A stretch of 33,627 nt of DNA. Origin: a phage. This document shows positions 743 through 32,971 of the stretch, in pieces. The notes beneath the pieces were generated by a model. That model saw only the letters and a program-made list of their open reading frames with translations. It was not told where the DNA came from and searched no databases. The DNA is taken from NCBI GenBank assembly GCA_012551655.1, contig GCA_012551655.1_3034.1; one strand, given 5' to 3'. Within the stretch, counting starts at the first letter, position 1. Every line of letters starts with the position of its first letter. The position numbers and the translations under genes were made by a program.

Positions 743-1660
743 TCAAAATTCATTAATGCTATTAGTTAATTTAGAAAGACCCGCTTTTACAAAATATGAA
801 TAAATTTTGCCACGCGGTGGTAATTTATATGAATTATAGTAATTCACAATGTTTGAAGCAATATTATCAGGAATATAATCAAAATCAATTAGAACTAAAT
901 TTTCTTTATAACGATTATATTCAGATTCTGTGAGAAGCACCTTAGCTTGCTCACGGTCATTAGCAATAGCTTCAACGATTGAAGTTTTCATTGAAGGAGT
1001 TCGTTCACCTTCAACTCTAGTAAACCAAAAGTCAGATCGTACTTTAACTGAAGCAACGTTATCCTTTTTGTCGCCTTTAAGGATTTTAGTCATACAATCA
1101 ATTTCAGCAGAACCACTTTTAATTTTAACCCATTTCTTATGCATCGGTGACCATTGCTTAACATTTGGATATTTGTGAAGCTGAGTGAAGTCACCATCCG
1201 ATGAAATGATCAAAATCTTATGTCCTTCTAAAGAGAACTTTTTAACAAGAACAGCAATGTGGTCATCTGCTTCATACTTATCAATATCCATAACAATGTA
1301 TGGCATATAAGCTTTCAATTCATCTATAACTTTATGACTGGATTCAAAATAACCTTCCCAGTCCCAAGTAGATTCTTCTCGTGCTTTTCCACGGTTTTTC
1401 TTGTAATAATACGCGAAATCACGACGCCAGTATCCAGATTTCGCGTTATCAATACACAGTACAATTTTAGTGTATCCAAGCGTTTTTGCTTTTTTGACAT
1501 TAAACTTAATTGAGTTCAATATCAAATGACGAACCATTGATAAATTAATTTTTTCTTTATCTGGGAAGTTTACCAGAGCAGTTGAAAGCGCAATTTGACT
1601 AAAGTCAATAAAGCAAATTCCTTCTTTGTAATCTTCATCCAGCATCATTTCTAAATCCAT
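743..1660 (-). CDS. rnh: RNase H / 5'-3' exonuclease (305 aa)
   Basis: Track ORF 743..1675 begins with TTG; ATG at 1660-1658 gives MDLEMMLDEDYKEGICFIDFSQ..., the recalled T4 RNase H N-terminus and size. Confidence 0.9.
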   Translation of the reverse strand: MDLEMMLDEDYKEGICFIDFSQIALSTALVNFPDKEKINLSMVRHLILNSIKFNVKKAKTLGYTKIVLCIDNAKSGYWRRDFAYYYKKNRGKAREESTWDWEGYFESSHKVIDELKAYMPYIVMDIDKYEADDHIAVLVKKFSLEGHKILIISSDGDFTQLHKYPNVKQWSPMHKKWVKIKSGSAEIDCMTKILKGDKKDNVASVKVRSDFWFTRVEGERTPSMKTSIVEAIANDREQAKVLLTESEYNRYKENLVLIDFDYIPDNIASNIVNYYNSYKLPPRGKIYSYFVKAGLSKLTNSINEF

Positions 1661-1689
1661 ATGAACCTCGTTCAATTAGTGAGATTTCT

Positions 1690-1719
1690 ATTATATACCA
1701 TCCAAATCTTAAAGTAAAC
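1690..1719 (-). promoter_or_regulatory. T4-type early (sigma70) promoter for rnh
   Basis: Minus strand reads GTTTAC (1719-1714), 18-bp spacer, TATAAT (1695-1690), about 30 nt upstream of the rnh ATG. Confidence 0.5.
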
Positions 1720-1722
1720 AAG

Positions 1723-1730
1723 TATAAATA
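1723..1730 (+). promoter_or_regulatory. Late promoter for gene 34
   Basis: TATAAATA about 35 nt upstream of the gene 34 ATG. Confidence 0.7.
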
Positions 1731-1764
1731 CTTATTATTGAAAACACAATAGGAGCCCGGGAGA

Positions 1765-12252: not shown

Positions 12253-12525
12253 TTATTTGTTCGTATACATCTCTAGATATCGATATACACCCTCAAAACC
12301 CTCGTTGAATTCGTCGATGAGGGTTTTCTTATCTTCCTGAGTTAATTCAGAAACAATTTTACGGAATGAATTCTGATTTAATTTTCTACCTTCATGCGTT
12401 ACTCCAATCTCATTCAGAAATGCAATAAAATTAGCACGATTTTCAACAATATCTTCTCTGGAAAATTTAATCAAAATAGACGCAACAGTAATAATTTCAC
12501 GAACTGTATCAATATTTTTATTCAT
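12253..12525 (-). CDS. asiA: AsiA anti-sigma70 factor (90 aa)
   Basis: MNKNIDTVREIITVASILIKFSREDIVENRANFIAFLNEIGV... matches recalled T4 AsiA; 90 aa. Confidence 0.9.
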   Translation of the reverse strand: MNKNIDTVREIITVASILIKFSREDIVENRANFIAFLNEIGVTHEGRKLNQNSFRKIVSELTQEDKKTLIDEFNEGFEGVYRYLEMYTNK

Positions 12526-12537
12526 TAACTATACCAC

Positions 12538-12690
12538 TCAATTAGTTGACTTTGTTATAATATCATCAGACGCTTGATTTGTAAACTGGTCTGTGTTATT
12601 TTCTTCAAAAATTTTTTCTACGAATTCCTTGAACGACTCGCGTTCCTGAGCTGCATTATGCTCGATTACCTTTTCAAGATTATGACTCAT
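12538..12690 (-). CDS. Hypothetical acidic 50-aa protein between arn and asiA
   Basis: ATG at 12690-12688 overlaps the arn stop (ATGA); MSHNLEKVIEHNAAQERESFKEFVEKIFEENNTDQFTNQASDDIITKSTN; not in the ORF track (<60 aa). Confidence 0.35.
   Translation of the reverse strand: MSHNLEKVIEHNAAQERESFKEFVEKIFEENNTDQFTNQASDDIITKSTN
12557..12586 (-). promoter_or_regulatory. T4-type early promoter for asiA
   Basis: Minus strand GTTTAC (12586-12581), 18-bp spacer, TATTAT (12562-12557); lies inside the upstream small ORF. Confidence 0.55.
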
Positions 12691-12965: not shown

Positions 12966-13048
12966 AGACCTTCCCCTTGTGTTTCTGTTTGCGATTAGAT
13001 TCTTTAAACGCTTTCTTCTTATCTTTATGAACAGAAGCTTTATTAAAA

Positions 13049-14334: not shown

Positions 14335-14344
14335 TATTTATTCC

Positions 14345-14980
14345 TCACAGTTCAGATGCTACAGTGATTACTGCTTCAATGTTTTCTACCGAGCGTTTAA
14401 TGTCAAGATACACATTACCGTTTTTAGCGATTTTACATGACATTCCGATGTCAGTAAATTTCTGAATATGATGTTCCATCATTTTATATCCAAAAATTCG
14501 CATATTTCCATTGTTGTTAATTTCAAAATTACGAATTCCGTGAGTGCGTTTTTCTAAAATAGCGAGATAGTTACTGCGATAAGTTTCAACCTTTTTAAGA
14601 ACAAATCCATTTTCATCTAAAAGTTTTAACATGAGGTCTTTATCTTCTTCCATATCGGAAGTAATCTCACGAGCTTTACGAGTTGCTCGTTTTTTCAGCA
14701 GTTCCGGAGCATTTTCCTGTGCGTATAAAGTTGCTGCATTTGAAATAATATCCTGAGCTTCACCTGTAATGATTAATCCATCACCAGATTTCTCCACCAG
14801 GCCTTTTTTAATCAATACCCCAATATTACTATTAACTACTGCGTTACCTAAATCTGGATGCACCTCACGAACTTCTGCAGCTGTAATGAAATCTTTCTTA
14901 GCAATGGTAATTAAAATCGCAGCAGTTTTTTCATTCAGAACATCGTTAGAAGCTTTGATGATGTAAGTTACTTTAGACAT
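14345..14980 (-). CDS. motA: MotA middle-transcription activator (211 aa)
   Basis: MSKVTYIIKASNDVLNEKTAAILITIAKKDFITAAEVREVHPDLG... matches recalled T4 MotA; 211 aa. Confidence 0.9.
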   Translation of the reverse strand: MSKVTYIIKASNDVLNEKTAAILITIAKKDFITAAEVREVHPDLGNAVVNSNIGVLIKKGLVEKSGDGLIITGEAQDIISNAATLYAQENAPELLKKRATRKAREITSDMEEDKDLMLKLLDENGFVLKKVETYRSNYLAILEKRTHGIRNFEINNNGNMRIFGYKMMEHHIQKFTDIGMSCKIAKNGNVYLDIKRSVENIEAVITVASEL

Positions 14981-15006
14981 TTTGTTTCTCCGTAGTTGAT
15001 AAGACT

Positions 15007-15036
15007 ATAATACCATAAGTTAAAGCAGAAGTAAAC
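15007..15036 (-). promoter_or_regulatory. T4-type early promoter for motA
   Basis: GTTTAC (15036-15031), 18-bp spacer, TATTAT (15012-15007), conserved leader tatcaactacggag, then ATG. Confidence 0.55.
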
Positions 15037-15044
15037 TTTATTTT

Positions 15045-15064
15045 GAGCTCTTTTTCAAGAGCTC
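15045..15064. other. Perfect 8-bp inverted repeat GAGCTCTT/AAGAGCTC (hairpin) between the 71-aa ORF and the motA promoter
   Basis: Seen directly; 4-nt loop; no flanking U-tract on either strand. Confidence 0.5.
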
Positions 15065-15077
15065 TGGTAAAAATTAC

Positions 15078-15293
15078 TTAGATTGATAGGTCTTTAATCT
15101 TAGCTATTAAAACAGCTTTTCCTTCACGAAGTTTTTCCAGTTTACGACCATTAGAGCCGCGAACTACTAAGGAATTTATCTCCACTTCCAACCAATTTAG
15201 TTTTTCAACTAGTTCTTTACGTTTAGCATTCATGCCGGGTTTAACTTTACCGAAACGGGTGGTAGCGTTTTGAGTATTTTTCATCTTATTCAT
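15078..15293 (-). CDS. Hypothetical basic 71-aa protein
   Basis: ATG at 15293 with GGAGA SD, downstream of an early promoter; K/R-rich. Confidence 0.55.
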   Translation of the reverse strand: MNKMKNTQNATTRFGKVKPGMNAKRKELVEKLNWLEVEINSLVVRGSNGRKLEKLREGKAVLIAKIKDLSI

Positions 15294-15335
15294 TTTAATC
15301 TCCAGTTATTTTTCTGTATCAGTAGTTGATAGTTG

Positions 15336-15365
15336 TATAGTACCATGGAATGCTTTGGTTGTAAA
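15336..15365 (-). promoter_or_regulatory. T4-type early promoter
   Basis: GTTTAC (15365-15360), 18-bp spacer, TACTAT (15341-15336), conserved leader tatcaactactga. Confidence 0.5.
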
Positions 15366-15374
15366 CCGTTTTGT

Positions 15375-15417
15375 GAAAAAAAAAATTTAAATAAAAAAGG
15401 GAGAGCCGAGGCTCTCC
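15375..15417 (-). terminator. Rho-independent terminator (minus strand) downstream of 52 and the 49-aa ORF
   Basis: Minus-strand GGGAGAGCC-(uc)-GGCUCUCCC stem followed by UUUUUUAUUUAAAUUUUUUUUUU. Confidence 0.7.
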
Positions 15418-15423
15418 CTAAAA

Positions 15424-15573
15424 TTACTGCATGACTGTGATAACTGTCATGATAACACGTTGAATTCCGAACGCAAGAAGACCTCCTGCTACGGCTGGAA
15501 CAACGCCTAAACCTGCCAGTAAAATGCTACCAGATACTAATGCAGCGCTTGTAATACCTATGAATGGACTCAT
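15424..15573 (-). CDS. Hypothetical 49-aa hydrophobic (Gly/Ala-rich) membrane peptide, 52.1-like position
   Basis: ATG at 15573 overlaps the gene 52 stop (ATGA); MSPFIGITSAALVSGSILLAGLGVVPAVAGGLLAFGIQRVIMTVITVMQ; not in the ORF track. Confidence 0.45.
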   Translation of the reverse strand: MSPFIGITSAALVSGSILLAGLGVVPAVAGGLLAFGIQRVIMTVITVMQ

Positions 15574-16898
15574 TTGATTTCCTCTAAATCTTTGGTGTAT
15601 TCTGTAACTACATCAGTAGTTTTCCAATATTCGTTTTCTTCTTTTTTAGCTTTAGCTTCTTCAGCAAGTTTCTTCGCTTCATCGGAAGTCATATGAAAAA
15701 TATTCATTCCAACTAGTTTATCAACATAAGAAGAATACATATCGATTTTCGAAAGTTCTTCGGTCAGTTCTTTACGAGTTTTACCCTGTACAACAATTTC
15801 ACCTGAAATTACTTTCTTAATGAAATGTGCCTTGGCAAAGGCTAAACGAAAAGCAGATTCAGTTTCTTTAATTTTGTTATCAATTCGTTTTTGGACATAA
15901 GTTTTACGAACTTCAACAAAGTCTTTAATTAAATCAACTACGTTATCGTAAACTTGTAGTTTTCCTTTCTCATTAATAACCGTAATATTCTGAGAACGAC
16001 GCTCAATCAACCCGAAGTCTTTCATAATTTTTGCATGACGTTCTTCTTCATTATCGCTCAAAGAATATTCTTTGCGGAATTTAACTTTGAATCCAAAACC
16101 ATGCTCACCACAAGCATCATCCCATGTAATGAAGCCTTTATCTTCAAGTGGGTCTAAGATTTTACTCACATAAGTTTCACGATCATACTTATACGGAATC
16201 TCAGTGATATGCATTTGAGTTCGTGAAGTAAACTTATATGTTCCACGAATTTCATATTGCCCATCAATTTCAACGACTTCACCGCGAAATTCTGGGAATT
16301 CTACCTTCGGTTTAGTTACTTTCTTTCCTTGAAGAGCTTGCAGTACAGCTTTCTTAACAGAAGAAACACTATGAGGAAGAATGTAAGTTGCATAACCAGT
16401 TGCAATACCGGAAACGCCATTAAGAAGAACAGTAGGAATAATAGGCAAATAGAAAGCAGGCGGAATGTGTTCTTTATCTTGATGTACCGGAGCATATTCA
16501 GTATCTTTATATACGTTATAGAAATTTTTACTTACACGAGCAAAAATATAACGACTTGCTGCTGCTTTTTGAACGGTACGAGAACCAAAGTTTCCTTGAC
16601 CATCTAACAGAGGAAAGTTATTATTCCAAGTATTAGCCATCAAAGCACCTGCATCTTGTGCAGAGTTTTCGCCATGGTGATATCCAAGGTCTGCTACACC
16701 ACCTGCAATAGAAGCGAGTTTGTGAAACTTATCTTTATTTCCTCGTGCCAAATCAAGAGCTCGAGCAATAACAAATCGTTGAACTGGCTTAAATCCATCA
16801 ATCATATTTGGAATGGCACGATTTTCAACCGTGTACATAGCATAAGCCAATGCTTCATTATCAATGATACTTTTTAAATCGCGATTATTCAGTTGCAT
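15570..16898 (-). CDS. 52: DNA topoisomerase II medium subunit gp52 (GyrA-like, 442 aa)
   Basis: 442 aa as T4 gp52; AAASRYIF active-site-Tyr-like motif; position downstream of ac/stp and upstream of motA. Confidence 0.9.
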   Translation of the reverse strand: MQLNNRDLKSIIDNEALAYAMYTVENRAIPNMIDGFKPVQRFVIARALDLARGNKDKFHKLASIAGGVADLGYHHGENSAQDAGALMANTWNNNFPLLDGQGNFGSRTVQKAAASRYIFARVSKNFYNVYKDTEYAPVHQDKEHIPPAFYLPIIPTVLLNGVSGIATGYATYILPHSVSSVKKAVLQALQGKKVTKPKVEFPEFRGEVVEIDGQYEIRGTYKFTSRTQMHITEIPYKYDRETYVSKILDPLEDKGFITWDDACGEHGFGFKVKFRKEYSLSDNEEERHAKIMKDFGLIERRSQNITVINEKGKLQVYDNVVDLIKDFVEVRKTYVQKRIDNKIKETESAFRLAFAKAHFIKKVISGEIVVQGKTRKELTEELSKIDMYSSYVDKLVGMNIFHMTSDEAKKLAEEAKAKKEENEYWKTTDVVTEYTKDLEEIK

Positions 16899-16902
16899 AA
16901 AT

Positions 16903-17043
16903 TTACCATACTAGTGAATGTAGTGCCATAATAACATCAGAAATGAAAAGCACGACTTGAATTAATCCGAACATTATTCCGTGATATAACGCTACCAATA
17001 AAGTAGCAAGGGCTAGTGAATAGCCCAAGATTTTCTTAATCAT
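16903..17043 (-). CDS. Hypothetical 46-aa hydrophobic membrane peptide immediately upstream of 52
   Basis: MIKKILGYSLALATLLVALYHGIMFGLIQVVLFISDVIMALHSLVW; stop 4 nt before the 52 ATG (52 has no good SD, so coupling is plausible); own SD weak. Confidence 0.4.
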   Translation of the reverse strand: MIKKILGYSLALATLLVALYHGIMFGLIQVVLFISDVIMALHSLVW

Positions 17044-17194
17044 TAGTAGATAACAACACAAATGTTAAATATGCACACATACCCTGGGCTAAAGCTTGTG
17101 AAAACACACTGCTAGCATCGATACAGATAGTTAAAACACATGCTACTATCCAACAAATAAATGAAATAACTCCTAATAATTTTGCGATATTCAT
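17036..17194 (-). CDS. Ac-like small membrane protein, copy 1 (52 aa)
   Basis: Track ORF 17036..17224 trimmed to ATG at 17194 with GAGGAG SD; MNIAKLLGVISFICWIVACVLTICIDASSVFSQALAQGMCAYLTFVLLSTND; size and position of T4 ac. Confidence 0.55.
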   Translation of the reverse strand: MNIAKLLGVISFICWIVACVLTICIDASSVFSQALAQGMCAYLTFVLLSTND

Positions 17195-17204
17195 AATATT
17201 CTCC

Positions 17205-17360
17205 TCAACTATTTTTAGAACCAATGTACGCGAATAATGATAAAATCGCTAATACGCCCTGAGCAGATGCTTGCAAAAATACTGAAGTTTCTCCAGTTAT
17301 TACTGTTCCGATGCATAAAAAGAACCAACAGAAAAAGGCTATACCGTGAACAAGTTTCAT
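17205..17360 (-). CDS. Ac-like small membrane protein, copy 2 (51 aa), paralog of copy 1
   Basis: ATG at 17360 with GAGGA SD; MKLVHGIAFFCWFFLCIGTVITGETSVFLQASAQGVLAILSLFAYIGSKNS; shares F-x-CW...SVF-Q-A-AQG pattern with copy 1; not in the ORF track. Confidence 0.55.
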   Translation of the reverse strand: MKLVHGIAFFCWFFLCIGTVITGETSVFLQASAQGVLAILSLFAYIGSKNS

Positions 17361-17367
17361 ATTTTCC

Positions 17368-17448
17368 TCACTGGCGTCCGAAGACGCCTTTAGTTTTAAG
17401 ATTGTTACGATAGAACTGCATCACATGTTCGTTATGGAAATTACTCAT
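17368..17448 (-). CDS. stp: Stp peptide (26 aa)
   Basis: Reverse translation gives [26 protein letters not shown], which I recognise as T4 Stp; ATG overlaps the ndd stop by 1 nt; 3' end contains a GGCGUC-UUCG-GACGCC hairpin. Confidence 0.8.
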
Positions 17449-17906
17449 TAATATGCCTGCAAAACAAATTTAAAGTTATCAGCCAACATACGGTTCATTT
17501 CTTCAAGTGTTTGATACTCAGAATGATGATTACGAGTAAACGCCAAAGCTAACTGACCTTTACCAAATCCCGTCGTCAGAGGTTTCATCTTAGAAGCAGG
17601 CAGATAAAATACTGTGTATGGAACATTGTTATTTGCAATAGTACGCGCAAGCTGAGACCGACGCTGACGAATATGACTTAGAACCGCACTGAATCCTTGC
17701 TTAGAACGCTGATTACCTACATAAAATCGTGCAGACACGCACGGATTACTAAATGGACGACCATCTAATTTACACACTAAAAAGTAAAATCCAGGTTTAG
17801 ATAAAATATCTTTGTGTGGAGTTCCCAAAAACCACTCACCGTTCTTGATTGTACCAATAACGGTAGCGCCTGCATTATTCAGATCAGTAACAGTCATATA
17901 TTTCAT
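17448..17906 (-). CDS. ndd: Ndd nucleoid disruption protein (151 aa)
   Basis: Track ORF 17448..17954 trimmed to ATG at 17906 (GAGGA SD): [21 protein letters not shown]... matches recalled T4 Ndd. Confidence 0.85.
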
Positions 17907-17938
17907 ATTAATTTCCTCTAAATTATTTTCTACTCCAA

Positions 17939-17960
17939 GGCCGCATGAATACACGCGGCC
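17939..17960 (-). other. Intergenic hairpin GGCCGC...GCGGCC upstream of ndd
   Basis: 6-bp GC stem with 10-nt loop; no U-tract. Confidence 0.4.
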
Positions 17961-17966
17961 ATTAAA

Positions 17967-18182
17967 TTAATCGTCGCAGTCGACGCTCAATTCCCAAAAC
18001 TCTTCTACGGTATAAGTTTCAGTATCATTTTCAATACAGAAACGTTCATTACTATTGTTTGCTAAAGTAGCATTAACTGTCATTTTCTCGCTAGTGCTCT
18101 TAAGTGGTGAAATACGAATTAACTGATCACCATTATCTAAACAAAAAATTTCACCAACTTTTACATCTTTAAAGCTTTTCAT
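17967..18182 (-). CDS. Hypothetical acidic 71-aa protein
   Basis: ATG with GAGGTGA SD; MKSFKDVKVGEIFCLDNGDQLIRISPLK... Confidence 0.55.
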   Translation of the reverse strand: MKSFKDVKVGEIFCLDNGDQLIRISPLKSTSEKMTVNATLANNSNERFCIENDTETYTVEEFWELSVDCDD

Positions 18183-18190
18183 AATTCACC

Positions 18191-18301
18191 TCAAGGAGTA
18201 TAAAATCCAAATGCAGTTGTTGACCATCCCATCCAATATGGGAAATTTGCACCAATGTAAAACATAAGAATATAAAACCAACCGCTCAGCAAATTCATCA
18301 T
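18191..18301 (-). CDS. Hypothetical 36-aa hydrophobic peptide
   Basis: MMNLLSGWFYILMFYIGANFPYWMGWSTTAFGFYTP; ATG overlaps the upstream stop (ATGA). Confidence 0.3.
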   Translation of the reverse strand: MMNLLSGWFYILMFYIGANFPYWMGWSTTAFGFYTP

Positions 18302-18495
18302 TTTACACCGTTCCAAATTGTTTCAACCACAGATTTTAAACCATTTTGATGAATATCCATTCCGACTACTGCCATCAAATAGATTCCAACTACAACTGAA
18401 CCTAAGGCAAAAATCAGCATGAAAATGAATAAAGCCGGAAAAATATTATCGAAAAACCATTCAATAAATGTAAAAGCACTGCGTTTACGCTTCAT
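18298..18495 (-). CDS. Hypothetical 65-aa membrane protein
   Basis: Track ORF 18298..18516 starts at TTG; ATG at 18495 with GAGGA SD gives MKRKRSAFTFIEWFFDNIFPALFIFMLIFALGSVVVGIYLMAVVG... Confidence 0.5.
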   Translation of the reverse strand: MKRKRSAFTFIEWFFDNIFPALFIFMLIFALGSVVVGIYLMAVVGMDIHQNGLKSVVETIWNGVK

Positions 18496-18502
18496 ATTTT
18501 CC

Positions 18503-18616
18503 TCACATAAATCCAAAGTAAACGTTTAATACATCAATCATTAAAACGATTGGGAATATACTCAAAACTATTAGTATTATAACTACATTCCATATAGCTT
18601 TAATAATCTTTTTCAT
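18503..18616 (-). CDS. Hypothetical 37-aa membrane peptide
   Basis: ATG at 18616 directly after promoter leader and SD GGAGGA: MKKIIKAIWNVVIILIVLSIFPIVLMIDVLNVYFGFM; the 82-aa track ORF is an N-terminal over-extension across the promoter. Confidence 0.45.
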   Translation of the reverse strand: MKKIIKAIWNVVIILIVLSIFPIVLMIDVLNVYFGFM

Positions 18617-18644
18617 TTTCTGTTCCTCCGTAGTTGATAGGGTA

Positions 18645-18674
18645 ATAGTACCACGGAAGAACAGTCTTGTAAAC
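18645..18674 (-). promoter_or_regulatory. T4-type early promoter
   Basis: GTTTAC (18674-18669), 18 bp, TACTAT (18650-18645), leader tatcaactacggagga. Confidence 0.5.
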
Positions 18675-18681
18675 AACTTTT

Positions 18682-18780
18682 TTAAAAATATTCGTAATAA
18701 ATGTGAATACCAACTACTACCGCTGAAACCTGTGCAACCCACCACGCACAAGCAATAAGTACAGAATTCAAAATTTTCAT
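18682..18780 (-). CDS. Hypothetical 32-aa hydrophobic peptide
   Basis: MKILNSVLIACAWWVAQVSAVVVGIHIYYEYF; ATG overlaps stop of the upstream 28-aa ORF (ATGA). Confidence 0.3.
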   Translation of the reverse strand: MKILNSVLIACAWWVAQVSAVVVGIHIYYEYF

Positions 18781-18863
18781 AATAACCTCATCACAAAAGT
18801 AAATGTTAAACAAATTACTGGAATACTAATTAACCAAACGAAACACCACCATAATGAACTCAT
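18777..18863 (-). CDS. Hypothetical 28-aa hydrophobic peptide
   Basis: MSSLWWCFVWLISIPVICLTFTFVMRLL; ATG overlaps stop of the upstream 87-aa ORF (ATGA). Confidence 0.3.
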   Translation of the reverse strand: MSSLWWCFVWLISIPVICLTFTFVMRLL

Positions 18864-19123
18864 AGTTCAATCTCAGCGATTTTCATTTCATTACTATTAA
18901 TAGCCTCTTTAAGACTATCTGAAAGAATTACATTCCAGTGGTCATTCATATGACCATTAACTAAGCGTGTAATTTCTTCAGGAGTTGAAAAATAAGGCTG
19001 ATCAGACTCCCAATGCGATAATTCTAAGCGAGTATAAATCATGCCTTCATCATCGCTAGAATATTCAACTGACACAAACTCATCAGTTATTTTATGTTTA
19101 GCGTAATAAAATTTAAATTTCAT
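18860..19123 (-). CDS. Hypothetical 87-aa protein
   Basis: Track ORF 18860..19216 trimmed to ATG at 19123 after SD GGAGGAG: MKFKFYYAKHKITDEFVSVEYSSDDEGMIYTRLELSHWESDQPYF... Confidence 0.55.
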   Translation of the reverse strand: MKFKFYYAKHKITDEFVSVEYSSDDEGMIYTRLELSHWESDQPYFSTPEEITRLVNGHMNDHWNVILSDSLKEAINSNEMKIAEIEL

Positions 19124-19149
19124 TTTTACTCCTCCGTAGCTGATAGTTG

Positions 19150-19179
19150 TATAGTACCACGGTCCTTGTGGTATGTAAA
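19150..19179 (-). promoter_or_regulatory. T4-type early promoter
   Basis: GTTTAC (19179-19174), 18 bp, TACTAT (19155-19150), leader tatcagctacggaggag. Confidence 0.5.
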
Positions 19180-19197
19180 CCATTTTGTGAAATTTTT

Positions 19198-19755
19198 TTA
19201 AATGGAAAGATACCATCCGTTGTAGTTGCTTTTTCTTACAACCTTACGAAGGTCTTCTCTGTCACCGATGAACTTCGGAGTGTACTGGATGACACCTGGA
19301 TGAATTTCTTTAGTGTTGAATATAATTATACAGTCAGCGACTTGATGATTTAGAATGGGCCCTAGATTTATTCCAGAACCATATGGATACTCTCCGCTGC
19401 ATCCTGTTGTTACCGAAATCCAACGTGAGTCAGTTTGATGTGTCTTAACTTCTACACGAAGCCCGCAGTATCTTGGATGCGCCAATACATCCCATGCGTA
19501 TGTATACGGGTCATTAACATCCTCTTGGCCTTTATTGACATATCCGCTTAGCCAATCTGCTACAAAAAATTCTGCGTACACAGCAATACGGCATCTTTCG
19601 ATAACTTCTGCCTTATCCTGATTTGGGTTTTGTTTTAAAGAGTATCTTGCAGTATTAGCAATTTTGACCTTCATTTCACTAGTCAAGTCACTGTTCGATA
19701 GGGTAAATGTCGGAATCTGAAATAGTCTCTGTAGCCCCGGATTCGTTTTCTGCAT
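19198..19755 (-). CDS. denB: Endonuclease IV DenB (185 aa)
   Basis: 185 aa as T4 DenB; AGGAAAG SD before ATG at 19755; position between ndd cluster and rIIB. Confidence 0.75.
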   Translation of the reverse strand: MQKTNPGLQRLFQIPTFTLSNSDLTSEMKVKIANTARYSLKQNPNQDKAEVIERCRIAVYAEFFVADWLSGYVNKGQEDVNDPYTYAWDVLAHPRYCGLRVEVKTHQTDSRWISVTTGCSGEYPYGSGINLGPILNHQVADCIIIFNTKEIHPGVIQYTPKFIGDREDLRKVVRKSNYNGWYLSI

Positions 19756-20017
19756 TTAAACTTTCCTTTTTACCGCTGAGATAAGCGTTATACACTTTAA
19801 GAGTACCGTAGTAAATTCGGTCATTTTCATCTAAAGACACACGGTCAAGTTCATCAAGTTCCTTTTTATCCATGACTATAACATCATTGCAATAAAGAAA
19901 CCCAAGTTTTTCGTGACCAAACTCAAATTTATTACAGTACACAATATTAGCGTGATGATTTCCATGCAGTTTAATCTCTTTTATGTCGGAATCACCGATA
20001 TTCATACAATAAATCAT
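19688..20017 (-). CDS. Hypothetical 109-aa protein; 3' end overlaps denB by 68 nt
   Basis: ATG at 20017 with aaggaaaa SD directly after a terminator-like hairpin; acidic low-complexity C-terminal tail. Confidence 0.5.
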   Translation of the reverse strand: MIYCMNIGDSDIKEIKLHGNHHANIVYCNKFEFGHEKLGFLYCNDVIVMDKKELDELDRVSLDENDRIYYGTLKVYNAYLSGKKESLNAENESGATETISDSDIYPIEQ

Positions 20018-20033
20018 AATTTTTCCTTAAAAC

Positions 20034-20052
20034 AAAAGGGCCGAAGCCCTTT
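20034..20052 (-). terminator. UUCG-loop hairpin with flanking T-tracts (partial terminator)
   Basis: AAAGGGC-CGAA-GCCCTTT on plus (UUCG loop on minus); T-rich both sides; between the 64-aa and 109-aa ORFs. Confidence 0.5.
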
Positions 20053-20055
20053 ATT

Positions 20056-20250
20056 TTACTTGAATTGTGCAATTCTTTTCTCTAGACATTCAGCATAAGA
20101 TTTCATTGAGATGAACTGTGAAAGCAGCAGTTCTTGCTCAACTGCACTAACCGTTAGAAACTTTGTGCTTTCTAAAAATTTGCTCAGTGCATTAATTTTG
20201 AGCATTAATTGATCGTATTCTTCTTTTACTCGTGCTTGATAACCTAACAT
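20056..20250 (-). CDS. Hypothetical 64-aa protein between rIIB and denB
   Basis: ATG at 20250 with AAGGAAAA SD directly after the rIIB 3' hairpin; predicted helical (MLGYQARVKEEYDQLMLKINALSKFLEST...). Confidence 0.5.
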   Translation of the reverse strand: MLGYQARVKEEYDQLMLKINALSKFLESTKFLTVSAVEQELLLSQFISMKSYAECLEKRIAQFK

Positions 20251-20267
20251 AATTTTCCTTAATATGA

Positions 20268-20285
20268 TAAGGGCCGAAGCCCTTA
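20268..20285 (-). other. UUCG-loop hairpin spanning the rIIB stop codon
   Basis: TAAGGGC-CGAA-GCCCTTA on plus; minus-strand RNA GGGC-UUCG-GCCC. Confidence 0.5.
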
Positions 20286-21221
20286 TTTAAATTGTTCAGT
20301 AACGTCTTCAACTACTTCGTATTGGCAGGTACGCATTTTAGCATCGTTGTAATCAATCGGAATTGATACTACATCACGTGGATGTACTTTAACTTTTACA
20401 ACTCGGCTGGTTGAACTGCCAAAGTGACGAATATAAGATTTAGAACACACATGCAGACCACGAGAACAAGTTTGTGTATCATCGTCATTCACACGAGTAC
20501 GCGGCATTTTAACTACTTTACCAGGACTGTTATCAAAGGTGTTTGAGTGACAGTCAAAGTAGTTGTCACGAACTACTTTCCAAGCATAGAAGTAACCATC
20601 TTCTGTAATTTCAATATCGTTTGCTACCAAGAAATCAAAGAGTCGAGATACCGCTTTCTGGCTTGGGTTTTCCAGCAGATTTTCCAAGAACGGAAAATAA
20701 AATTCAAAGTTTTCACCTTTTTCCATCGAATCGAGAATACGATCAACTAAACCAGACCGTAATTCGATATTTTGATAGAACAAGCTTCCGCCTTCAATTC
20801 GAACATCGCCGGAAATATATTTTTCAACAGCGCGACGAACATTAATTTTTTGTGCCGCTTCTTCCAACTTATCTGCTACAAGCAGATTAAGAATTTCCTG
20901 GAAGTTTGAATGAGTATTAGGAGTTGCGTTATAAGTTACACCGTCAACAGTAATTGAAATGAATTTTTTAGATGCATTCCAAATAATGTCAGATTTAGCA
21001 ACTGGAGCAATAACTGCATCGCTATTAACTTTAATTGTAATATCACCGCTAATAGTAACTTTAGAGCGTTTAGCTTCTTCAGCATTTTTCAAAACACGAC
21101 GAATTGTGTCAACCGATACACCTTGCCAATCAGCCAATTCCTGTTGGGTGTAATTACCGCTTGAATACAATTTAACAATTTCAGCTTGTTCGTTTTTGGT
21201 CAGGCATTTAATATTGTACAT
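20283..21221 (-). CDS. rIIB: rIIB protein (312 aa)
   Basis: 312 aa as T4 rIIB, immediately downstream of the 725-aa rIIA; MYNIKCLTKNEQAEIVKLYSSGNYTQQELADWQG... Confidence 0.9.
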   Translation of the reverse strand: MYNIKCLTKNEQAEIVKLYSSGNYTQQELADWQGVSVDTIRRVLKNAEEAKRSKVTISGDITIKVNSDAVIAPVAKSDIIWNASKKFISITVDGVTYNATPNTHSNFQEILNLLVADKLEEAAQKINVRRAVEKYISGDVRIEGGSLFYQNIELRSGLVDRILDSMEKGENFEFYFPFLENLLENPSQKAVSRLFDFLVANDIEITEDGYFYAWKVVRDNYFDCHSNTFDNSPGKVVKMPRTRVNDDDTQTCSRGLHVCSKSYIRHFGSSTSRVVKVKVHPRDVVSIPIDYNDAKMRTCQYEVVEDVTEQFK

Positions 21222-21232
21222 AATTTTCCTTA

Positions 21233-23410: not shown

Positions 23411-23420
23411 AATTTCCTCA

Positions 23421-23624
23421 TTAATTCATATTACGTTTAATAACTTCGGCAACTTCTAGTAGTTCATCTTTAGTTGCAGTGTCGGATTGAATTTTATCTC
23501 TAATATCTTTAAAGCGGTTTTTAAATTCTTCGGCTTCTCCCATATCGAAAAAGCGTTGAATGATTCTATATTCTCGATGAACTGCTTTATCAAAAAGTTC
23601 TAAATTTACTTTATATGATTTCAT
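23421..23624 (-). CDS. rIIA.1-like hypothetical 67-aa protein
   Basis: ATG with GAGGA SD downstream of an early promoter, upstream of rIIA. Confidence 0.6.
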
Positions 23625-23649
23625 TTCAATATCCTCATTTGCCCAATTA

Positions 23650-23679
23650 ATTATACCACATCCTTGTGGTAAAGTAAAC
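23650..23679 (-). promoter_or_regulatory. T4-type early promoter for rIIA.1-rIIA, overlapping the 3' end of gene 39
   Basis: GTTTAC (23679-23674), 18 bp, TATAAT (23655-23650). Confidence 0.55.
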
Positions 23680-25496
23680 TACTGGCTCATCCATTCTTTA
23701 CGAAGGTCAGCATTATCTCCCATGAGCATTTCAAAAAGCTCTTTCCAGTTCTCAGGAAGTTTAACAACATCATATACTGGATTTTGAATCATCTCACGAT
23801 ATTCAGATTTTTCCAAAGAGCCAAGTCCTTTAATATAACGGATGCTATGTTTAGGTAGAGCATCTTTGGCACTCTCATATTCAGCGACTGTATAAAACCA
23901 TTCTTGTTTTTTACCGACCTGAGCGATGATTACAGGAGTTTTGACAAAGCGAATTCGTCCTTGCTCAAACAATTCTGGCCAATTACTAAAAAATCCAAGC
24001 AGAGAAGGATAAATGCTTCCTAGACCATCATGGTCAGCATCAGTCATAATAGCAATATTATGATAATTCAAGTTTTCAGCTTTTTCACCGAGAACTAATC
24101 CAGTGATTGCGCAAATATCAAATAGTTCTTTGTTTTTAAGCATATCAGCATATGACATACCCCAACTATTAAGAACTTTACCACGCAATGGATAACCACC
24201 ATGAAGTTCTTTATCACGAACATCAATAAGATATCCGATAGCCGAATCACCCTCAGTCAAGAAAAGAGTCGTGTCAGCATCTTTACCACAAAGATTCGCT
24301 TTAATATGTTTATGAACCTTAGCTTTAGAAGCCTTTTTAGCTGCTTTTGTTTCTGCTGCTTTTTCTGCTGCCAATTTACGAGCCAAAGCAGCTTCAATAA
24401 TCGGCATTAGAATTGCTTCATTATTTAGAATAGCACGTGAAATCTTTTTAGCATCAAGCTGAATATGACTACGGATTTCACCAAATGGAGAAGTCAAACG
24501 CTCTTTAGTTTGAGAATCAAATCGCATGTTTTTCATATCACGAACAAACATAACGATAGTCAAACATTCTTTAACACGTGCTTTAGTTACATCAATTTTG
24601 AATTTACGTTTGATTTGTGGAATAAGGTCTTCACAAATATCATCCATAACACAGTCAATGTGATGGCCACCATTCTTAGTGTGAATGTTATTCACATAAG
24701 TTAATTGACGAAATCCATCCGGTGAACGACCAACCGCAATAGAACAATTTTCTTGTTCTTGAACAATAGCATGTTCATCATACTGTCGTGCATATTTCTT
24801 AAAATTACCCTGAACCTTTTTACCATTAAAGGTAAATTGAATATCAGGATAAACAACAGCAAGTGTCTGGAGACGATCTAGTGTAATGTCAAGATAAACT
24901 TGGGACAGCTCATTAGTTTCAAATGACATAAAATCAGGAATGAAAGTAACACGAGTTCCTTTCCATTTTCCTGGAATAGTTTCCCATGATTTATTTTCCA
25001 TGCCATTTGAACAACGAACTACAATATTATTTTGACCATCGCCAGTTTCACCAACAAACATCACAGAAAAAATGTTAGTTAAACTAGAACCAACACCGTT
25101 CATACCGCCGGTGACGCGTTCTTTATCATCACCGAAGTTACCACCTGCTTTTGGAATAGTCCATGCAGCAACAGGACCAGGAATTTCTTCACCGGTAGGT
25201 GTTTTAACCATCGCTTGTGGAATACCGCGACCGTTATCTTCAACTGTTACTTGATTGTTTTTAATAGTAACGTTAATTTTATTTGCGAATTTAAACTTAG
25301 TACGAATACCTTCATCTACTGAGTTATCGATAATTTCATCAATAAGCTTAACAAGACCAGGTACATACTGAACACTTTCCCATTTACCAAACAGAAAGCG
25401 CTCATGCATTTCATTAGCAGAAGAACCAATGTACATGCCGCTACGCTTTTTGATATGTTCAATATCGCTCAGAATTTTAATTTCATTCTTAATCAT
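23679..25496 (-). CDS. 39: DNA topoisomerase II large subunit gp39, unsplit (605 aa; GyrB-like ATPase plus Toprim)
   Basis: Track ORF begins at GTG; ATG at 25496 with GAGGA SD. Motifs EIIDNSVDE and DNGRGIP (GHKL ATPase), EGDSA and DADHDG (Toprim). Single continuous ORF. Confidence 0.9.
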   Translation of the reverse strand: MIKNEIKILSDIEHIKKRSGMYIGSSANEMHERFLFGKWESVQYVPGLVKLIDEIIDNSVDEGIRTKFKFANKINVTIKNNQVTVEDNGRGIPQAMVKTPTGEEIPGPVAAWTIPKAGGNFGDDKERVTGGMNGVGSSLTNIFSVMFVGETGDGQNNIVVRCSNGMENKSWETIPGKWKGTRVTFIPDFMSFETNELSQVYLDITLDRLQTLAVVYPDIQFTFNGKKVQGNFKKYARQYDEHAIVQEQENCSIAVGRSPDGFRQLTYVNNIHTKNGGHHIDCVMDDICEDLIPQIKRKFKIDVTKARVKECLTIVMFVRDMKNMRFDSQTKERLTSPFGEIRSHIQLDAKKISRAILNNEAILMPIIEAALARKLAAEKAAETKAAKKASKAKVHKHIKANLCGKDADTTLFLTEGDSAIGYLIDVRDKELHGGYPLRGKVLNSWGMSYADMLKNKELFDICAITGLVLGEKAENLNYHNIAIMTDADHDGLGSIYPSLLGFFSNWPELFEQGRIRFVKTPVIIAQVGKKQEWFYTVAEYESAKDALPKHSIRYIKGLGSLEKSEYREMIQNPVYDVVKLPENWKELFEMLMGDNADLRKEWMSQ

Positions 25497-25523
25497 CACT
25501 TATCCTCGTTTGGTTTCGGGAAT

Positions 25524-27037: not shown

Positions 27038-27307
27038 TTAATTGAACAGTGGAGCGATGCGTTTCAGAAGAGTAGCAGCACCTTTAGCGAATTTTACATC
27101 ATGAAAAACAGTTTCTTCTTCCGTTACAACACGAGCTTTAATGTTTTCACAATCCCAATTTTTGCGAACAATCTTCAAAAGCTGCAGTAAATCTTTACAT
27201 TCAGCAATATCGATAACACATCCACGAGAATCTTCCATTATCGCACGATAACCGTAAGCCATACCATAATCATTGAAAGATTGCTCGATGATAATTAAAT
27301 TTTCCAT
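27038..27307 (-). CDS. Hypothetical 89-aa protein
   Basis: Track ORF starts at TTG; ATG at 27307 with GGAGA SD after promoter leader. Confidence 0.55.
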   Translation of the reverse strand: MENLIIIEQSFNDYGMAYGYRAIMEDSRGCVIDIAECKDLLQLLKIVRKNWDCENIKARVVTEEETVFHDVKFAKGAATLLKRIAPLFN

Positions 27308-27331
27308 TTTATTCTCCAAGTTGTTTTCTGT

Positions 27332-27374
27332 ATCAGTAGTTGATATTGATATAGTACCATAATCAACTACTGAT
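27332..27374 (-). promoter_or_regulatory. Early-promoter-like element: -10 TACTAT flanked by a perfect 13-bp inverted repeat (no GTTTAC -35)
   Basis: atcagtagttgat (27332-27344) and atcaactactgat (27362-27374) flank the -10 at 27351-27356; conserved leader present. Confidence 0.4.
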
Positions 27375-27404
27375 GTATATAGTTTTATGAAAAAATTTTA
27401 AACT

Positions 27405-27896
27405 TTATGCATAGCGAGCTTTGCTATAGTGTTTAATCCAACTTTCAGGAATGACTTTGTATGTTCCTAAAAATACCGCGTTGTATAACTTAACGCCATC
27501 TTCTACCCATTGATCAGTAATGTATGCACACATAGCGCGAGTACGGTTAACAACACCTTCCTCACCTTCAGTAAATTCAAACTCATAAGGAGCAACGAAC
27601 TTAATAGCCTGACCGAGTTTCCACTTAAAGTCTACACCTACATGCGAAGTATCAATCGTTTCAATTCCTTTAGCGGGAACAGCTTTCAAAAACGCAGGCT
27701 CAAGAAATTTCCATCGAACATAACCAAACTGAGGTTTAGACATTCCATCTTTAGGAATGATACGCACTTTTACTTCAGAATCTTCATCTTTAACACCATG
27801 TTTAAGCTGAATGCTTACGACTTCAACCAATTTTCCTGCTGCTTTAGAACGGGATTTATCAGATACACGAGCAATTTCACCGATATTAATATTCAT
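27405..27896 (-). CDS. MotB-like protein (163 aa; assignment by size and position)
   Basis: 163 aa vs 162 for T4 MotB, preceded by an early promoter; C-terminal ~40 aa paralogous to the next ORF. Confidence 0.55.
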   Translation of the reverse strand: MNINIGEIARVSDKSRSKAAGKLVEVVSIQLKHGVKDEDSEVKVRIIPKDGMSKPQFGYVRWKFLEPAFLKAVPAKGIETIDTSHVGVDFKWKLGQAIKFVAPYEFEFTEGEEGVVNRTRAMCAYITDQWVEDGVKLYNAVFLGTYKVIPESWIKHYSKARYA

Positions 27897-27940
27897 AATT
27901 ATCTCTCACTTGTTAAAAAGATTTTATACTCCGCAGGACC

Positions 27941-27970
27941 ATTATACTCTGGTCCCAAGAGTTTGTAAAC
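27941..27970 (-). promoter_or_regulatory. T4-type early promoter for the MotB-like gene
   Basis: GTTTAC (27970-27965), 18 bp, TATAAT (27946-27941). Confidence 0.55.
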
Positions 27971-28470
27971 TAGCTTACACGAACATTAATCACTGCGCTG
28001 CGAGGAACTACAGAGTACTCTCCAGCATGAACTACGTTCAGAAGTTCAACACCATCTTCAATCCACTGATCAGTTACCCAACCGCCAATCGGATTCGCGA
28101 ATGGACGACGAATATAAACTGCCTTACACAACAAATCAGTCGGGTCTTCAATTTTTTCAACTGGTGTTACATACATAGAAACTAAATCCATATCAATATG
28201 GGATTTTTCTTGTTCTTCTTTTTCAATTTCTGTCAATAAATTGAAATCTTCTTCATAGATGATGAATGATGATACCCTTCCATAATAGTTTCTAATTTCC
28301 ATGTACACTGTACCAATGAGAATTCCGCTATTAACACTAATAACAGTAAAAGGATATCCGCCAGTTGTACCAAGAAGTTCCCAAAACTTGCTATCAGTCG
28401 TATTCGACATTGTCTGGAAATCAATTTCAGATGGTTTTTTCATTTGATACGTAGTATTAATTTTAATCAT
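27970..28470 (-). CDS. Hypothetical 166-aa protein, C-terminal domain paralogous to the MotB-like ORF
   Basis: ATG with AAAGGAAA SD; C-terminus GWVTDQWIEDGVELLNVVHAGEYSVVP vs YITDQWVEDGVKLYNAVFLGTYKVIP in the neighbour. Confidence 0.55.
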   Translation of the reverse strand: MIKINTTYQMKKPSEIDFQTMSNTTDSKFWELLGTTGGYPFTVISVNSGILIGTVYMEIRNYYGRVSSFIIYEEDFNLLTEIEKEEQEKSHIDMDLVSMYVTPVEKIEDPTDLLCKAVYIRRPFANPIGGWVTDQWIEDGVELLNVVHAGEYSVVPRSAVINVRVS

Positions 28471-28479: not shown

Positions 28480-28992
28480 TTAATCTAAGGTAATAAAGCC
28501 TTTTAATTCGGCATGCGATTTGCGAAACATTACTTGATGCCCACCAATGATAACTTGATCATCTGGCACTTCATAAATCGCAATGTACATTCCACGATCT
28601 TTTAAGTCTTCACGCTCTTCTCGAGTAAACCATCTCATTATATCATATTCACTAGCGAAAGCAAAATGATATAATGCAATAAACCACAATGGAATATAAT
28701 TTTCAATTCGTGAATAATCTTTATTCCATTTAGTTTTAATAGCATCATTAGCATTTTCAACTAATAACTTATCATCGTGCGGAATAGGAATACTTTCATG
28801 ACTTTCATAATTATCGCTATGATGATGAAATGACGATGAATTAATACCGCAAAATTTTAGCCAAGTTCGAGTTTTCATAGAATCAAATCCACGATAAGGA
28901 GTTGATTGAACACATAACTCTTGCCTAATTTTCATTATACCACTATCATCATTTAATGCGCTAAACGATGATTCAACACGATAAATTTTCAT
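28480..28992 (-). CDS. Hypothetical 170-aa protein
   Basis: Track ORF 28480..29031 trimmed to ATG at 28992 after SD GAGGA and promoter leader: MKIYRVESSFSALNDDSG... Confidence 0.55.
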   Translation of the reverse strand: MKIYRVESSFSALNDDSGIMKIRQELCVQSTPYRGFDSMKTRTWLKFCGINSSSFHHHSDNYESHESIPIPHDDKLLVENANDAIKTKWNKDYSRIENYIPLWFIALYHFAFASEYDIMRWFTREEREDLKDRGMYIAIYEVPDDQVIIGGHQVMFRKSHAELKGFITLD

Positions 28993-29019
28993 TTTATTAT
29001 CCTCAGTAGCTATGGTGTT

Positions 29020-29049
29020 ATAATACCACAACTGACCGAGGAAGTAAAC
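29020..29049 (-). promoter_or_regulatory. T4-type early promoter
   Basis: GTTTAC (29049-29044), 18 bp, TATTAT (29025-29020). Confidence 0.55.
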
Positions 29050-29055
29050 AACTTT

Positions 29056-29739
29056 TTATCGTTTAGTTGGAAGAGATAGAGGATCGCATTCTTCCTCTGA
29101 TGGAGCGTCTTCTAGACCCATAGCGTATCGCAAAGCATACTTCATCATCAGGATGTCTTTCGCACAGTCATGAATAGAATCATGTGCAACGAATCCATCT
29201 AAAGTTCCCTTTGGAAGAGGACATGTGGTCATATCACGAACAAGCAGAAGTGCTTCAATTCTGGTACGAATATCACGCTGATTCCAGAATTTACACGGTT
29301 CTAACTTAAATGTGTCAAGCTCATTCTCAGAAACACCATTAAGACGTTGAATATCACGAATGAGATCGACTAAAATTGGAAAATCAAACGACATTCCACG
29401 GCACCAGCCTTGAGATTTCCAAGGATCGATATTATGCGCATTGATGTAATCATTAAATTTTGCAATACCATCGATAGTGCTTACATCTTCATCGGATGGT
29501 GCAATATTTTTTCGAGCTTCAGGAGATTGATTCTTCCACCATTCGATAGTGCTTTTAGTAAAAAGACGATGTCCTTTTTGGCTTTTTAAATCAAATTTGA
29601 TTTTAATGCCACGTGAAACTAATTCATCAAACGTTTCAACTACTTCTGGGTTAGGGTCAAAAGCAATTACAGCCAAATCAATAACAGCTGCTTTTTCACC
29701 GCTTCCCATTGTTTCAAAATCTATAATAAAATCAAACAT
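29056..29739 (-). CDS. dexA: Exonuclease A DexA (227 aa), DEDDh 3'-5' exonuclease
   Basis: 227 aa as T4 DexA; DFETMG (Exo I) and H-x4-D in FVAHDSIHDCAKD (Exo III) motifs. Confidence 0.85.
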   Translation of the reverse strand: MFDFIIDFETMGSGEKAAVIDLAVIAFDPNPEVVETFDELVSRGIKIKFDLKSQKGHRLFTKSTIEWWKNQSPEARKNIAPSDEDVSTIDGIAKFNDYINAHNIDPWKSQGWCRGMSFDFPILVDLIRDIQRLNGVSENELDTFKLEPCKFWNQRDIRTRIEALLLVRDMTTCPLPKGTLDGFVAHDSIHDCAKDILMMKYALRYAMGLEDAPSEEECDPLSLPTKR

Positions 29740-32101: not shown

Positions 32102-32848
32102 TTATCCTCGGATAAGTTTAAAAATTGAACAATTTAGCGGGTATCCTCTTTTCAGTTTAAGTTTATCAATAAAAGACAAGTTTTGATACCGCTCTACACC
32201 TTGAATAATTTTATCACACATATCATATTGCATTTCTGCTTCTGACAACTTTTTCACAATTTTCCAATCCGAGCCTTTAAGAAGAACGTTCAGTTTAACA
32301 ACTTCAGCGCCTTCTGCTATGCGAGAACCATCAATACGAGCTTTAAGTGCTATAATCCTTAGCTTAATGTCAGAGGTCTGTTTTGATTTAGAAAGCTGAG
32401 AAATGTGTTCAATTCGATTTTCACGTTTTTTCTGTATAGCTTTAATTTGATTATAAGTCTTTTTGATTTTAGCCCATTTCTTTTCATCTAAATTTAGTTT
32501 ATGAACTTTTTTCGCAGATGAACGACCAATTCGCAAAGCAAATAAATCCCGTTTTTCAATTAACTCCTCTAAAGTATAATCAGAACGAAATGTATTATAC
32601 TTTTTCTTTACTGCAATAACATTCCCTTTAATGTATCCAACGTTATTATCAAAACGTTCTAATGATAATTTCTCTCCTTCAATACGATTATCAAAAGGTT
32701 CTCCCGAGTAAGCACAAACTTTTTGATCTAAAATGTTCTTAATGTAATTGAAGTCTAAGTTAAAATCTTTAGAACGTCTTTTTGCAGATGCCTGAGTATG
32801 CTCTAAACGACGTTTAATTTTACGAATTTGGTTATTAGACAGCTTCAT
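32102..32848 (-). CDS. Srd-like protein (248 aa; assignment by size and position)
   Basis: Basic 248-aa ORF upstream of dda with its own early promoter, as for T4 srd; sequence not independently recognised. Confidence 0.5.
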   Translation of the reverse strand: MKLSNNQIRKIKRRLEHTQASAKRRSKDFNLDFNYIKNILDQKVCAYSGEPFDNRIEGEKLSLERFDNNVGYIKGNVIAVKKKYNTFRSDYTLEELIEKRDLFALRIGRSSAKKVHKLNLDEKKWAKIKKTYNQIKAIQKKRENRIEHISQLSKSKQTSDIKLRIIALKARIDGSRIAEGAEVVKLNVLLKGSDWKIVKKLSEAEMQYDMCDKIIQGVERYQNLSFIDKLKLKRGYPLNCSIFKLIRG

Positions 32849-32884
32849 ATTTTTCTCACATCTTACGGACGGTTAACTACTTAT

Positions 32885-32914
32885 ACTATAACATTTTTAC
32901 TTCAGCTTGTAAAC
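32885..32914 (-). promoter_or_regulatory. T4-type early promoter for the srd-dda-dexA transcription unit
   Basis: GTTTAC (32914-32909), 18 bp, TATAGT (32890-32885). Confidence 0.5.
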
Positions 32915-32971
32915 AACTTTATGTAAAAATGCTTTAAAAATTTCATGGTATAATGAATCTAAGTCCTTCCA

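Follow-up and report, generated by a model that had tools for sequence, protein, structure and literature searches.

The early promoters (Pe) of phage T4 are reportedly treated in Wilkens and Rueger 1994, Miller et al. 2003, Nolan et al. 2006 and Hinton 2010. Their published consensus combines GTTTAC at -36 to -31, a GT-rich or TGn extended -10, TAnnnT and an A-rich UP element (PMC1524935; PMC2988021), with the TGn being carried by 'most' T4 early promoters (PMC2988021). One of them, Pe148.6, was found by primer extension to be active 1 min after infection (PMC6024815), and reverse-transcriptase stops have been reported at the motB promoter (PMC1702504). Strong sites for RegB/S1 follow the consensus GG*AGRAYARAA and usually lie in the Shine-Dalgarno (SD) sequence of early genes (PMC3014915; PMC1702504). 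Cleavage has been demonstrated experimentally in the T4 leaders of motB (GGAG), motB.2 (GGAU) and motA (PMC1702504). Furthermore, T4-like phages carry PeSL cassettes, composites of a stem-loop or terminator, an early promoter, an SD and an ATG that adjoin indels in hyperplastic regions, and a PeSL model of cassette recombination has been published (Arbiol 2010, Comeau 2014; PMC2839356, PMC4122927).

The window analysed here, a stretch of phage DNA of 33,627 nucleotides, is a Tequatrovirus (T4-like) segment that runs from rnh through the tail-fibre genes 34-38 and t to asiA...modA. A megablast search with positions 17000-21000 returned 701 phage records, mostly Escherichia/Shigella Tequatrovirus, with a top identity of 96.4%. 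T4 itself is about 96% identical overall and aligns colinearly at 88-98%. More specifically, rnh lies on the minus strand and is followed by genes 34-38 and t on the plus strand, after which a minus-strand early region holds, in order, asiA, arn, motA, 52, ac, stp, ndd, denB, rIIB, rIIA, 39, goF, cef, motB, dexA, dda, srd and modA. At about 12 kb the GC skew reverses its sign, in agreement with the strand switch from t to asiA.

The window is studded with promoter cassettes which, with high confidence, we assign to the T4-type early promoters of a Tequatrovirus. They belong to systems that are already known, the T4 early promoters and the PeSL cassettes, and no new mechanism is implied. Counted with fixed spacing (GTTTAC, exactly 18 nt, TAnnnT), the signature occurs 11 times in the window, against 0.36 +/- 0.61 expected, and none of 100 shuffles reached 11. 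Ten of these matches are on the minus, early-gene strand, with the G of GTTTAC at 1719, 12586, 15036, 15366, 18674, 19180, 23679, 27970, 29049 and 32914, and all ten coincide with the sites that a sequence-only reading of this DNA had picked out. The remaining match, at 9549 on the plus strand inside gene 37, has neither TGn nor a start codon and was judged to be a chance occurrence. That reading had spoken of at least ten copies; the ten hold, but it missed an eleventh cassette at 27305-27404, whose -35 is degenerate. An unbiased repeat search likewise returned the promoter family as the largest direct-repeat family, with a reference copy at 18617-18656.

At each of the ten minus-strand sites, the distance from the predicted +1 to the ATG is 19-38 nt and an SD precedes the ATG. 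The genes 3' of these sites are rnh, asiA, motA, ORF71, ndd.4, ORF87, rIIA.1, motB, motB.2 and srd, each of them a T4 early gene or a member of a PHROG family whose profile suits the short form of the ORF. Across the aligned cassettes, the column information rose above the 99th percentile of a null built from random sites at -58, -52, -44, -42 and -40 (the UP region), at -36 to -31, at -16 to -7 and at +1/+2. GTTTAC is exact at -36 to -31 in all cassettes except the eleventh, which has ATATAC. A TAnnnT -10 at 17-bp sigma-70 spacing, with TTTACn as the -35 hexamer, is found in all eleven; the 18 bp that the sequence-only reading had counted after GTTTAC is the optimal 17 bp in sigma-70 terms, because TTTACn is the hexamer. 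Read directly from the sequences, the TGn extended -10 is present in 9/11 cassettes and missing at 1719 and 27970, while a sigma-70 scan of 12000-31999, which leaves out 1719, placed TG before the -10 at 8 of the 10 listed sites and not at 27970. The A+T content over -60 to -37, the UP region, varies from 58 to 88% among the cassettes. A generic sigma-70 consensus scan was not enriched in this AT-rich window (72 found vs 85.6 expected), so that only the phage-specific signature discriminates. Conservation between phages at the site upstream of ndd.4 is uninformative, since the six sequences compared are 97% identical there.

We then compared the cassettes with those of T4. A scan for GTTTAC-N18-TAnnnT over 144 of the 169 kb of T4, omitting the late genes at 80-105 kb, gave 38 matches, all 38 on the minus strand, which comes close to the about 40 early promoters of T4. 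Nine of the ten minus-strand sites of the window have an identically placed T4 counterpart, orthologous in both position and sequence, which bears out the proposal that these are T4-like early promoter/leader cassettes. The T4 RefSeq/GenBank records hold no promoter features and only one note that names a promoter, Pe133295, between cd.2 and cd.3; at the site that matches it, the G stands at 133331, and the +1 therefore lies 36 nt downstream of the G. The same arithmetic applied to the T4 rnh promoter leads from 150763 to 150,727, the map unit given for Pe148.6. The +1 convention used here is calibrated on these two T4 sites tied to named promoters, and the comparison with the T4 early promoters that had been proposed as a check thus reproduced both coordinates.

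In GTTTAC at -36 to -31, 17-bp sigma-70 spacer, TGn, TAnnAT, A-rich UP element, minus-strand location and position upstream of the same early genes, the cassettes equal the T4 early promoters. Nothing essential differs; upstream of motA, one additional copy has come in with ORF71 in this phage, and some leaders are not those of T4. Judging from the T4 literature, each cassette would be a very strong sigma-70 promoter built from four elements, namely UP (about -60 to -40), GTTTAC, the extended -10 (TGn) and a TAnnAT -10, and unmodified host RNA polymerase would use it from the moment of DNA entry. In T4, Alt boosts some early promoters by ADP-ribosylating the alpha subunit. Transcription would start 36 nt past the G, give unstructured leaders of 19-38 nt and drive short minus-strand early units, namely rnh, asiA, motA, ORF71, ndd.4, ORF87/ndd.6, rIIA.1-rIIA, ORF89-cef, motB, motB.2 and srd. 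The logic of recognition by the host polymerase is shared with T7 A1 and lambda PL, strong sigma-70 promoters with an UP element and an extended -10, but the -35 is TTGACA there and GTTTAC here, and some Pe members respond to Alt-modified polymerase. The eleven promoters with their predicted start sites provide a corrected early-transcription map for this phage, the significance of which reaches little beyond annotation.

All cassettes are on the minus strand. The early promoter 5' of rnh (1658..1743) has its -36 G at 1719, the -10 TATAAT at 1690-1695, a predicted +1 at 1683 and the ATG at 1660, and is the orthologue of T4 Pe148.6 (T4 -36 G at 150763). The promoter 5' of asiA (12523..12610) is located inside asiA.1, with the -36 at 12586, TGA-TATTAT, a predicted +1 at 12550 and the ATG at 12525; its T4 orthologue is at 161211. 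Two cassettes precede motA. The proximal one (14978..15072) consists of a stem-loop (15051-15072; fold -12.8 kcal/mol), an early promoter and a short ATCAACTACGGAG leader, with the -36 at 15036, a predicted +1 at 15000 and the ATG at 14980. It has no T4 counterpart and is an extra copy that arrived with ORF71. The ORF71 cassette (15291..15419) is made up of an intrinsic terminator (15398-15419), an early promoter and a long leader ATCAACTACTGATACAGAAAA..GGAGATTAAAATG, with the -36 at 15366, a predicted +1 at 15330 and the ATG at 15293, and is the positional orthologue of the T4 motA promoter (163673). The focal cassette, the early promoter 5' of ndd.4 (18614..18698), has the -36 at 18674, TGG-TACTAT, a predicted +1 at 18638 that is the A of ATCAACTAC, an SD of GGAGG and the ATG at 18616; it is orthologous to T4 166807. 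Downstream of denB, a promoter at 19121..19204 (-36 at 19180, predicted +1 at 19144, ATG at 19123; T4 167086) stands here 5' of an 87-aa ORF (ORF87, 18860-19123) absent from T4, where the counterpart drives ndd.6.

Further along, the promoter 5' of rIIA.1/rIIA (23622..23703; -36 at 23679, TGG-TATAAT, predicted +1 at 23643, ATG at 23624) is the orthologue of T4 2458 and lacks the ATCAACTAC leader. The one 5' of motB (27894..27994; -36 at 27970, TATAAT without TGn, predicted +1 at 27934, ATG at 27896) is orthologous to T4 7215, and its leader contains GGAGTATAAAA, which is the RegB site investigated in motB of T4 (PMC1702504). The promoter 5' of motB.2 (28990..29073; -36 at 29049, TGG-TATTAT, predicted +1 at 29013, ATG at 28992) corresponds to T4 8218 and has the SD/RegB motif GGATAATAAAA. 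Lastly, the promoter 5' of srd (32846..32938; -36 at 32914, TGT-TATAGT, predicted +1 at 32878, ATG at 32848) is the orthologue of T4 11851 and is also without the ATCAACTAC leader. Directly upstream of it, the plus strand carries a mirror-image promoter-like site at 32930-32954 (TGCTTTA-N11-TGGTATAAT), situated within an imperfect 24-nt inverted repeat (32887-32936) with a similar sequence in T4. If used, this site would make an RNA antisense to modA.

The eleventh cassette (27305..27404), 5' of an 89-aa ORF upstream of cef (ATG at 27307), was revealed by an exact TATCAACTAC at 27336-27345, and the same element lies 5' of cef in T4. It has the degenerate -35 ATATAC (27375-27380), TGG-TACTAT, TGGTACTAT, an exact ATCAACTAC leader and the RegB motif GGAGAATAAAA. 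With its poor -35, it may depend on TGn/-10 alone or be inactive; its candidate start would be at 27344. Its spacer is replaced by an inverted copy of the leader (ATCAGTAGTTGAT), and a palindrome with 20-nt arms that are 85% complementary (27332-27374) is centred on its -10. In read-through RNA, this palindrome would fold as a hairpin of -20.2 kcal/mol (z -5.1). T4 has a sequence identical to it upstream of cef. It could be an attenuator, a processing site or a scar of inverted recombination.

The ORF list translated some of the leaders as false N-terminal extensions, as the sequence-only reading had noticed, and this applies to five ORFs. More specifically, the ORF at 18503-18751 is listed with 82 aa where 37 are real (ndd.4, start at 18616), 18860-19216 with 118 instead of 87 aa (ORF87, start at 19123), 28480-29031 with 183 instead of 170 aa (motB.2, start at 28992), 27038-27319 with 93 instead of 89 aa (start at 27307) and 743-1675 with 310 instead of 305 aa (rnh, start at 1660). 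The short starts are backed by PHROG profile lengths (37/37, 87/87) and by the annotations of four relatives, and the five over-long calls were corrected. One family, phrog_28140, has an 80-position profile of which the 37-aa ndd.4 matches positions 44-80 only; it seems to be an over-long ndd.4 call that was annotated often enough to become a family of its own.

The ATCAACTAC leader occupies exactly +1 to +9 of the transcript under the 36-nt convention and occurs in five of the ten minus-strand sites, at 15036, 15366, 18674, 19180 and, in diverged form, 29049, as well as in the eleventh cassette. It is weak at 1719 and 12586 and absent at 23679, 27970 and 32914. The leader that had been called conserved, tatcaactac(g/t)gagg, is found in only half of the ten sites. 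Equally, a block described as near-identical and recurring almost verbatim turned out to be only 37-74% identical in pairwise comparison over -36 to +10. Overall, that first reading is supported; its exaggeration is limited to how alike the sites are and how widely the leader is shared. An extended block, tttcacaaa..GTTTAC..TGGTACTATacaactATCAACTAC.., defines a subfamily with 6 members among the 11 sites here and 8 among the 38 in T4. At three sites, where a stem-loop or terminator accompanies it, the combination may constitute PeSL-type composite cassettes. Folding of the leaders gave no significant structure (MFE of 0 kcal/mol for the focal leader, z = -0.6 for the long form), and Rfam had no match anywhere in the window; an interpretation as an RNA element was dropped on these two results.

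Scored against the RegB consensus, the motifs at 27380 (GGAGAATAAAA) and 29049 (GGATAATAAAA) match at 11/11 positions, those at 27970 and 15366 at 10/11 and that at 15036 at 9/11. These five SD/leader motifs are of the same kind as the RegB/S1 sites of T4 early leaders, although the motA leader here differs from the T4 motA leader. The short-leader cassettes at 18674 and 19180 (GGAGGAAC.., GGAGGAGT..) reach only 8-9/11 and may be poorer RegB substrates. We propose that the GGAG/GGAU SD with its A-rich tail doubles as a target of the RegB/S1 endoribonuclease, which would later inactivate the early mRNAs. Since the leaders match RegB sites that are cleaved in T4, the cassette would unite a promoter, a ribosome-binding site and a built-in shut-off, as is already known for T4.

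The similarity within the ATCAACTAC subfamily may result from the recent duplication of cassettes, together with recombination or gene conversion, and not from per-base selection for promoter/leader function. We consider the chances of this explanation to be even, and it complements the assignment as early promoters rather than excluding it. Compared with T4, the window carries two insertions, one of 295 bp with ORF71 (15078-15293) between the two cassettes upstream of motA and one of 240 bp with ORF87 within the ndd.6 promoter's leader, and in the T4 alignment all four of their junctions fall in leaders. We estimate from our own count that 4 of about 18 indel junctions of the early region fall in about 2% of its sequence. 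T4 has one cassette upstream of motA and nothing in the slot there, which contains ORF71 in the window and the unrelated ORF75 in phage G29; in both the window and G29, two cassettes enclose ORFs that give no BLASTP alignment with each other (phrog_6200 vs phrog_10955). In the three-way alignment of the window, T4 and G29, homology ends inside the leader, right after ATCAACTA(C) (ATCAA.TA). The motA-slot arrangement of the window recurs in 4 of 699 related records, and ORF87 is present in 420 of 499. Furthermore, one cassette copy matches the upstream region of T2L e.8 at 86.6%.

The published crossovers agree with this picture, both those of PeSL cassettes in RB49/phi1, which were mapped between the -10 and the ATG (PMC2839356), and the exchange of ndd.4/.5 between PST and T4 (PMC4122927), where the ndd region serves as the published example. 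Against it, a significant stem-loop is found in only 3/11 cassettes, at 15036 (z -3.9/-4.3), 15366 (the terminator, z -5.5) and 27380 (the hairpin over the -10, z -5.1), with none significant on folding of the other eight, and five cassettes without the shared leader still keep their promoter elements. In this respect, the window departs from the PeSL description: most of its sites are plain promoters. Repeated homology among the cassettes would let ORFs swap in and out, as had been suggested when the repeats were proposed as recombination substrates; the insertion junctions inside leaders speak for that suggestion, which matches the PeSL model (PMC2839356, PMC4122927). T4, this phage and G29 offer a clean three-way example of ORF swapping between cassettes that backs the model.

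It is a good deal less probable that ATCAACTAC is functional in itself, as a 5'-end RNA signal, a promoter-escape element or a specific recombinase site. Its exact placement at +1 to +9 in 6/11 sites here and 8/38 in T4, its retention across phages at the focal site and the inverted copy at 27332-27374 that forms a hairpin over the -10 would fit such a role, but it is missing from 5/11 promoters here and from most in T4, RegB requires nothing 5' of GGAG (PMC1702504), and the leaders are unstructured and without Rfam match. Shared ancestry is the simpler account of the pattern. Similarly, we think it unlikely that the +1 to +9 block AUCAACUAC is selected, be it as a preferred crossover site that gives the cassettes portability or as a 5'-end RNA signal; if it were, the palindrome at 27332-27374 would be a by-product of inverted recombination there.

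That the cassettes are MotA/AsiA-dependent middle promoters instead of early ones is very improbable. The MotA-box pattern, TGCTTnA located 11-13 nt upstream of the -10 and replacing the -35, has 9 matches in the window (2.1 expected), and among the cassettes it overlaps only 15036, where TGCTTTA, 11 nt and TATAGT follow each other. The other ten cassettes are without a MotA box, a -35-type GTTTAC stands at sigma-70 spacing, and the known T4 middle promoters of the region map elsewhere, at 836-860, 3974-3999, 21351-21374 and 31129-31154 (PMC2988021). The middle-promoter assignment was rejected on the single MotA box and the separate positions of these promoters. Least tenable of all is an origin as functionless chance matches to sigma-70 in AT-rich DNA, which the lack of enrichment of generic matches and the chance-like plus-strand site at 9549 might recall, but which is refuted by the excess over all shuffles, the strict strand bias, the fixed start-codon distance and the orthology with T4.

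The MotA-box matches deserve a description of their own. In the extra motA cassette, the TGCTTTA-11 nt-TATAGT arrangement is at 15002-15027 on the minus strand, and the T4 motA promoter has no MotA box; to judge by this pattern, motA of this phage and of G29 might be served by a dual early/middle promoter. The minus-strand matches at 21351-21374 and 31129-31154 correspond to the T4 start-site positions 122 (PrIIB2) and 10058 (Pdex.2). The minus-strand match at 836-860 is inside rnh, where PmdsbA is drawn, and the one at 3974-3999 is antisense in gene 34 and is probably P34i.

Further observations concern sequences outside the promoter cassettes. CUUCGG hairpins are a feature of T4 described in the older literature, and a second intergenic repeat cassette of the window, at 20015-20051, 20248-20284 and 17373-17388, consists of a GGGCTTCGGCCC or GGCGTCTTCGGACGCC hairpin (UUCG tetraloop) followed by an SD and an ATG. 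These UUCG-hairpin cassettes flank denB.1 and an inserted 109-aa ORF, and one is also found 5' of the second ac-like gene. Two 51-aa paralogues of Ac, the membrane protein of acridine resistance, are encoded in tandem at 17042-17197 and 17205-17360, where T4 has one. Gene 39 (topoisomerase; 23679-25499) is a single 606-codon ORF, and the window lacks the T4 split into 39 and 60 with its 50-nt translational bypass, as well as 60.1 and mobA. In the gene 37/38 region (7489-11550), the ORF in the position of 37 has 1083 aa and that in the position of 38 has 259 aa, and identity with T4 is lost across 7655-11570. On the basis of size, we class gp38 as a T2-type adhesin rather than a T4-type chaperone. 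Finally, small ORFs of the early region at 25831-26202 (123 aa), 30206-30466 (86 aa) and 27038-27307 (89 aa) are absent or truncated in T4, the T4 version of the 89-aa ORF being shortened by an internal deletion that begins 10 nt past the ATG.
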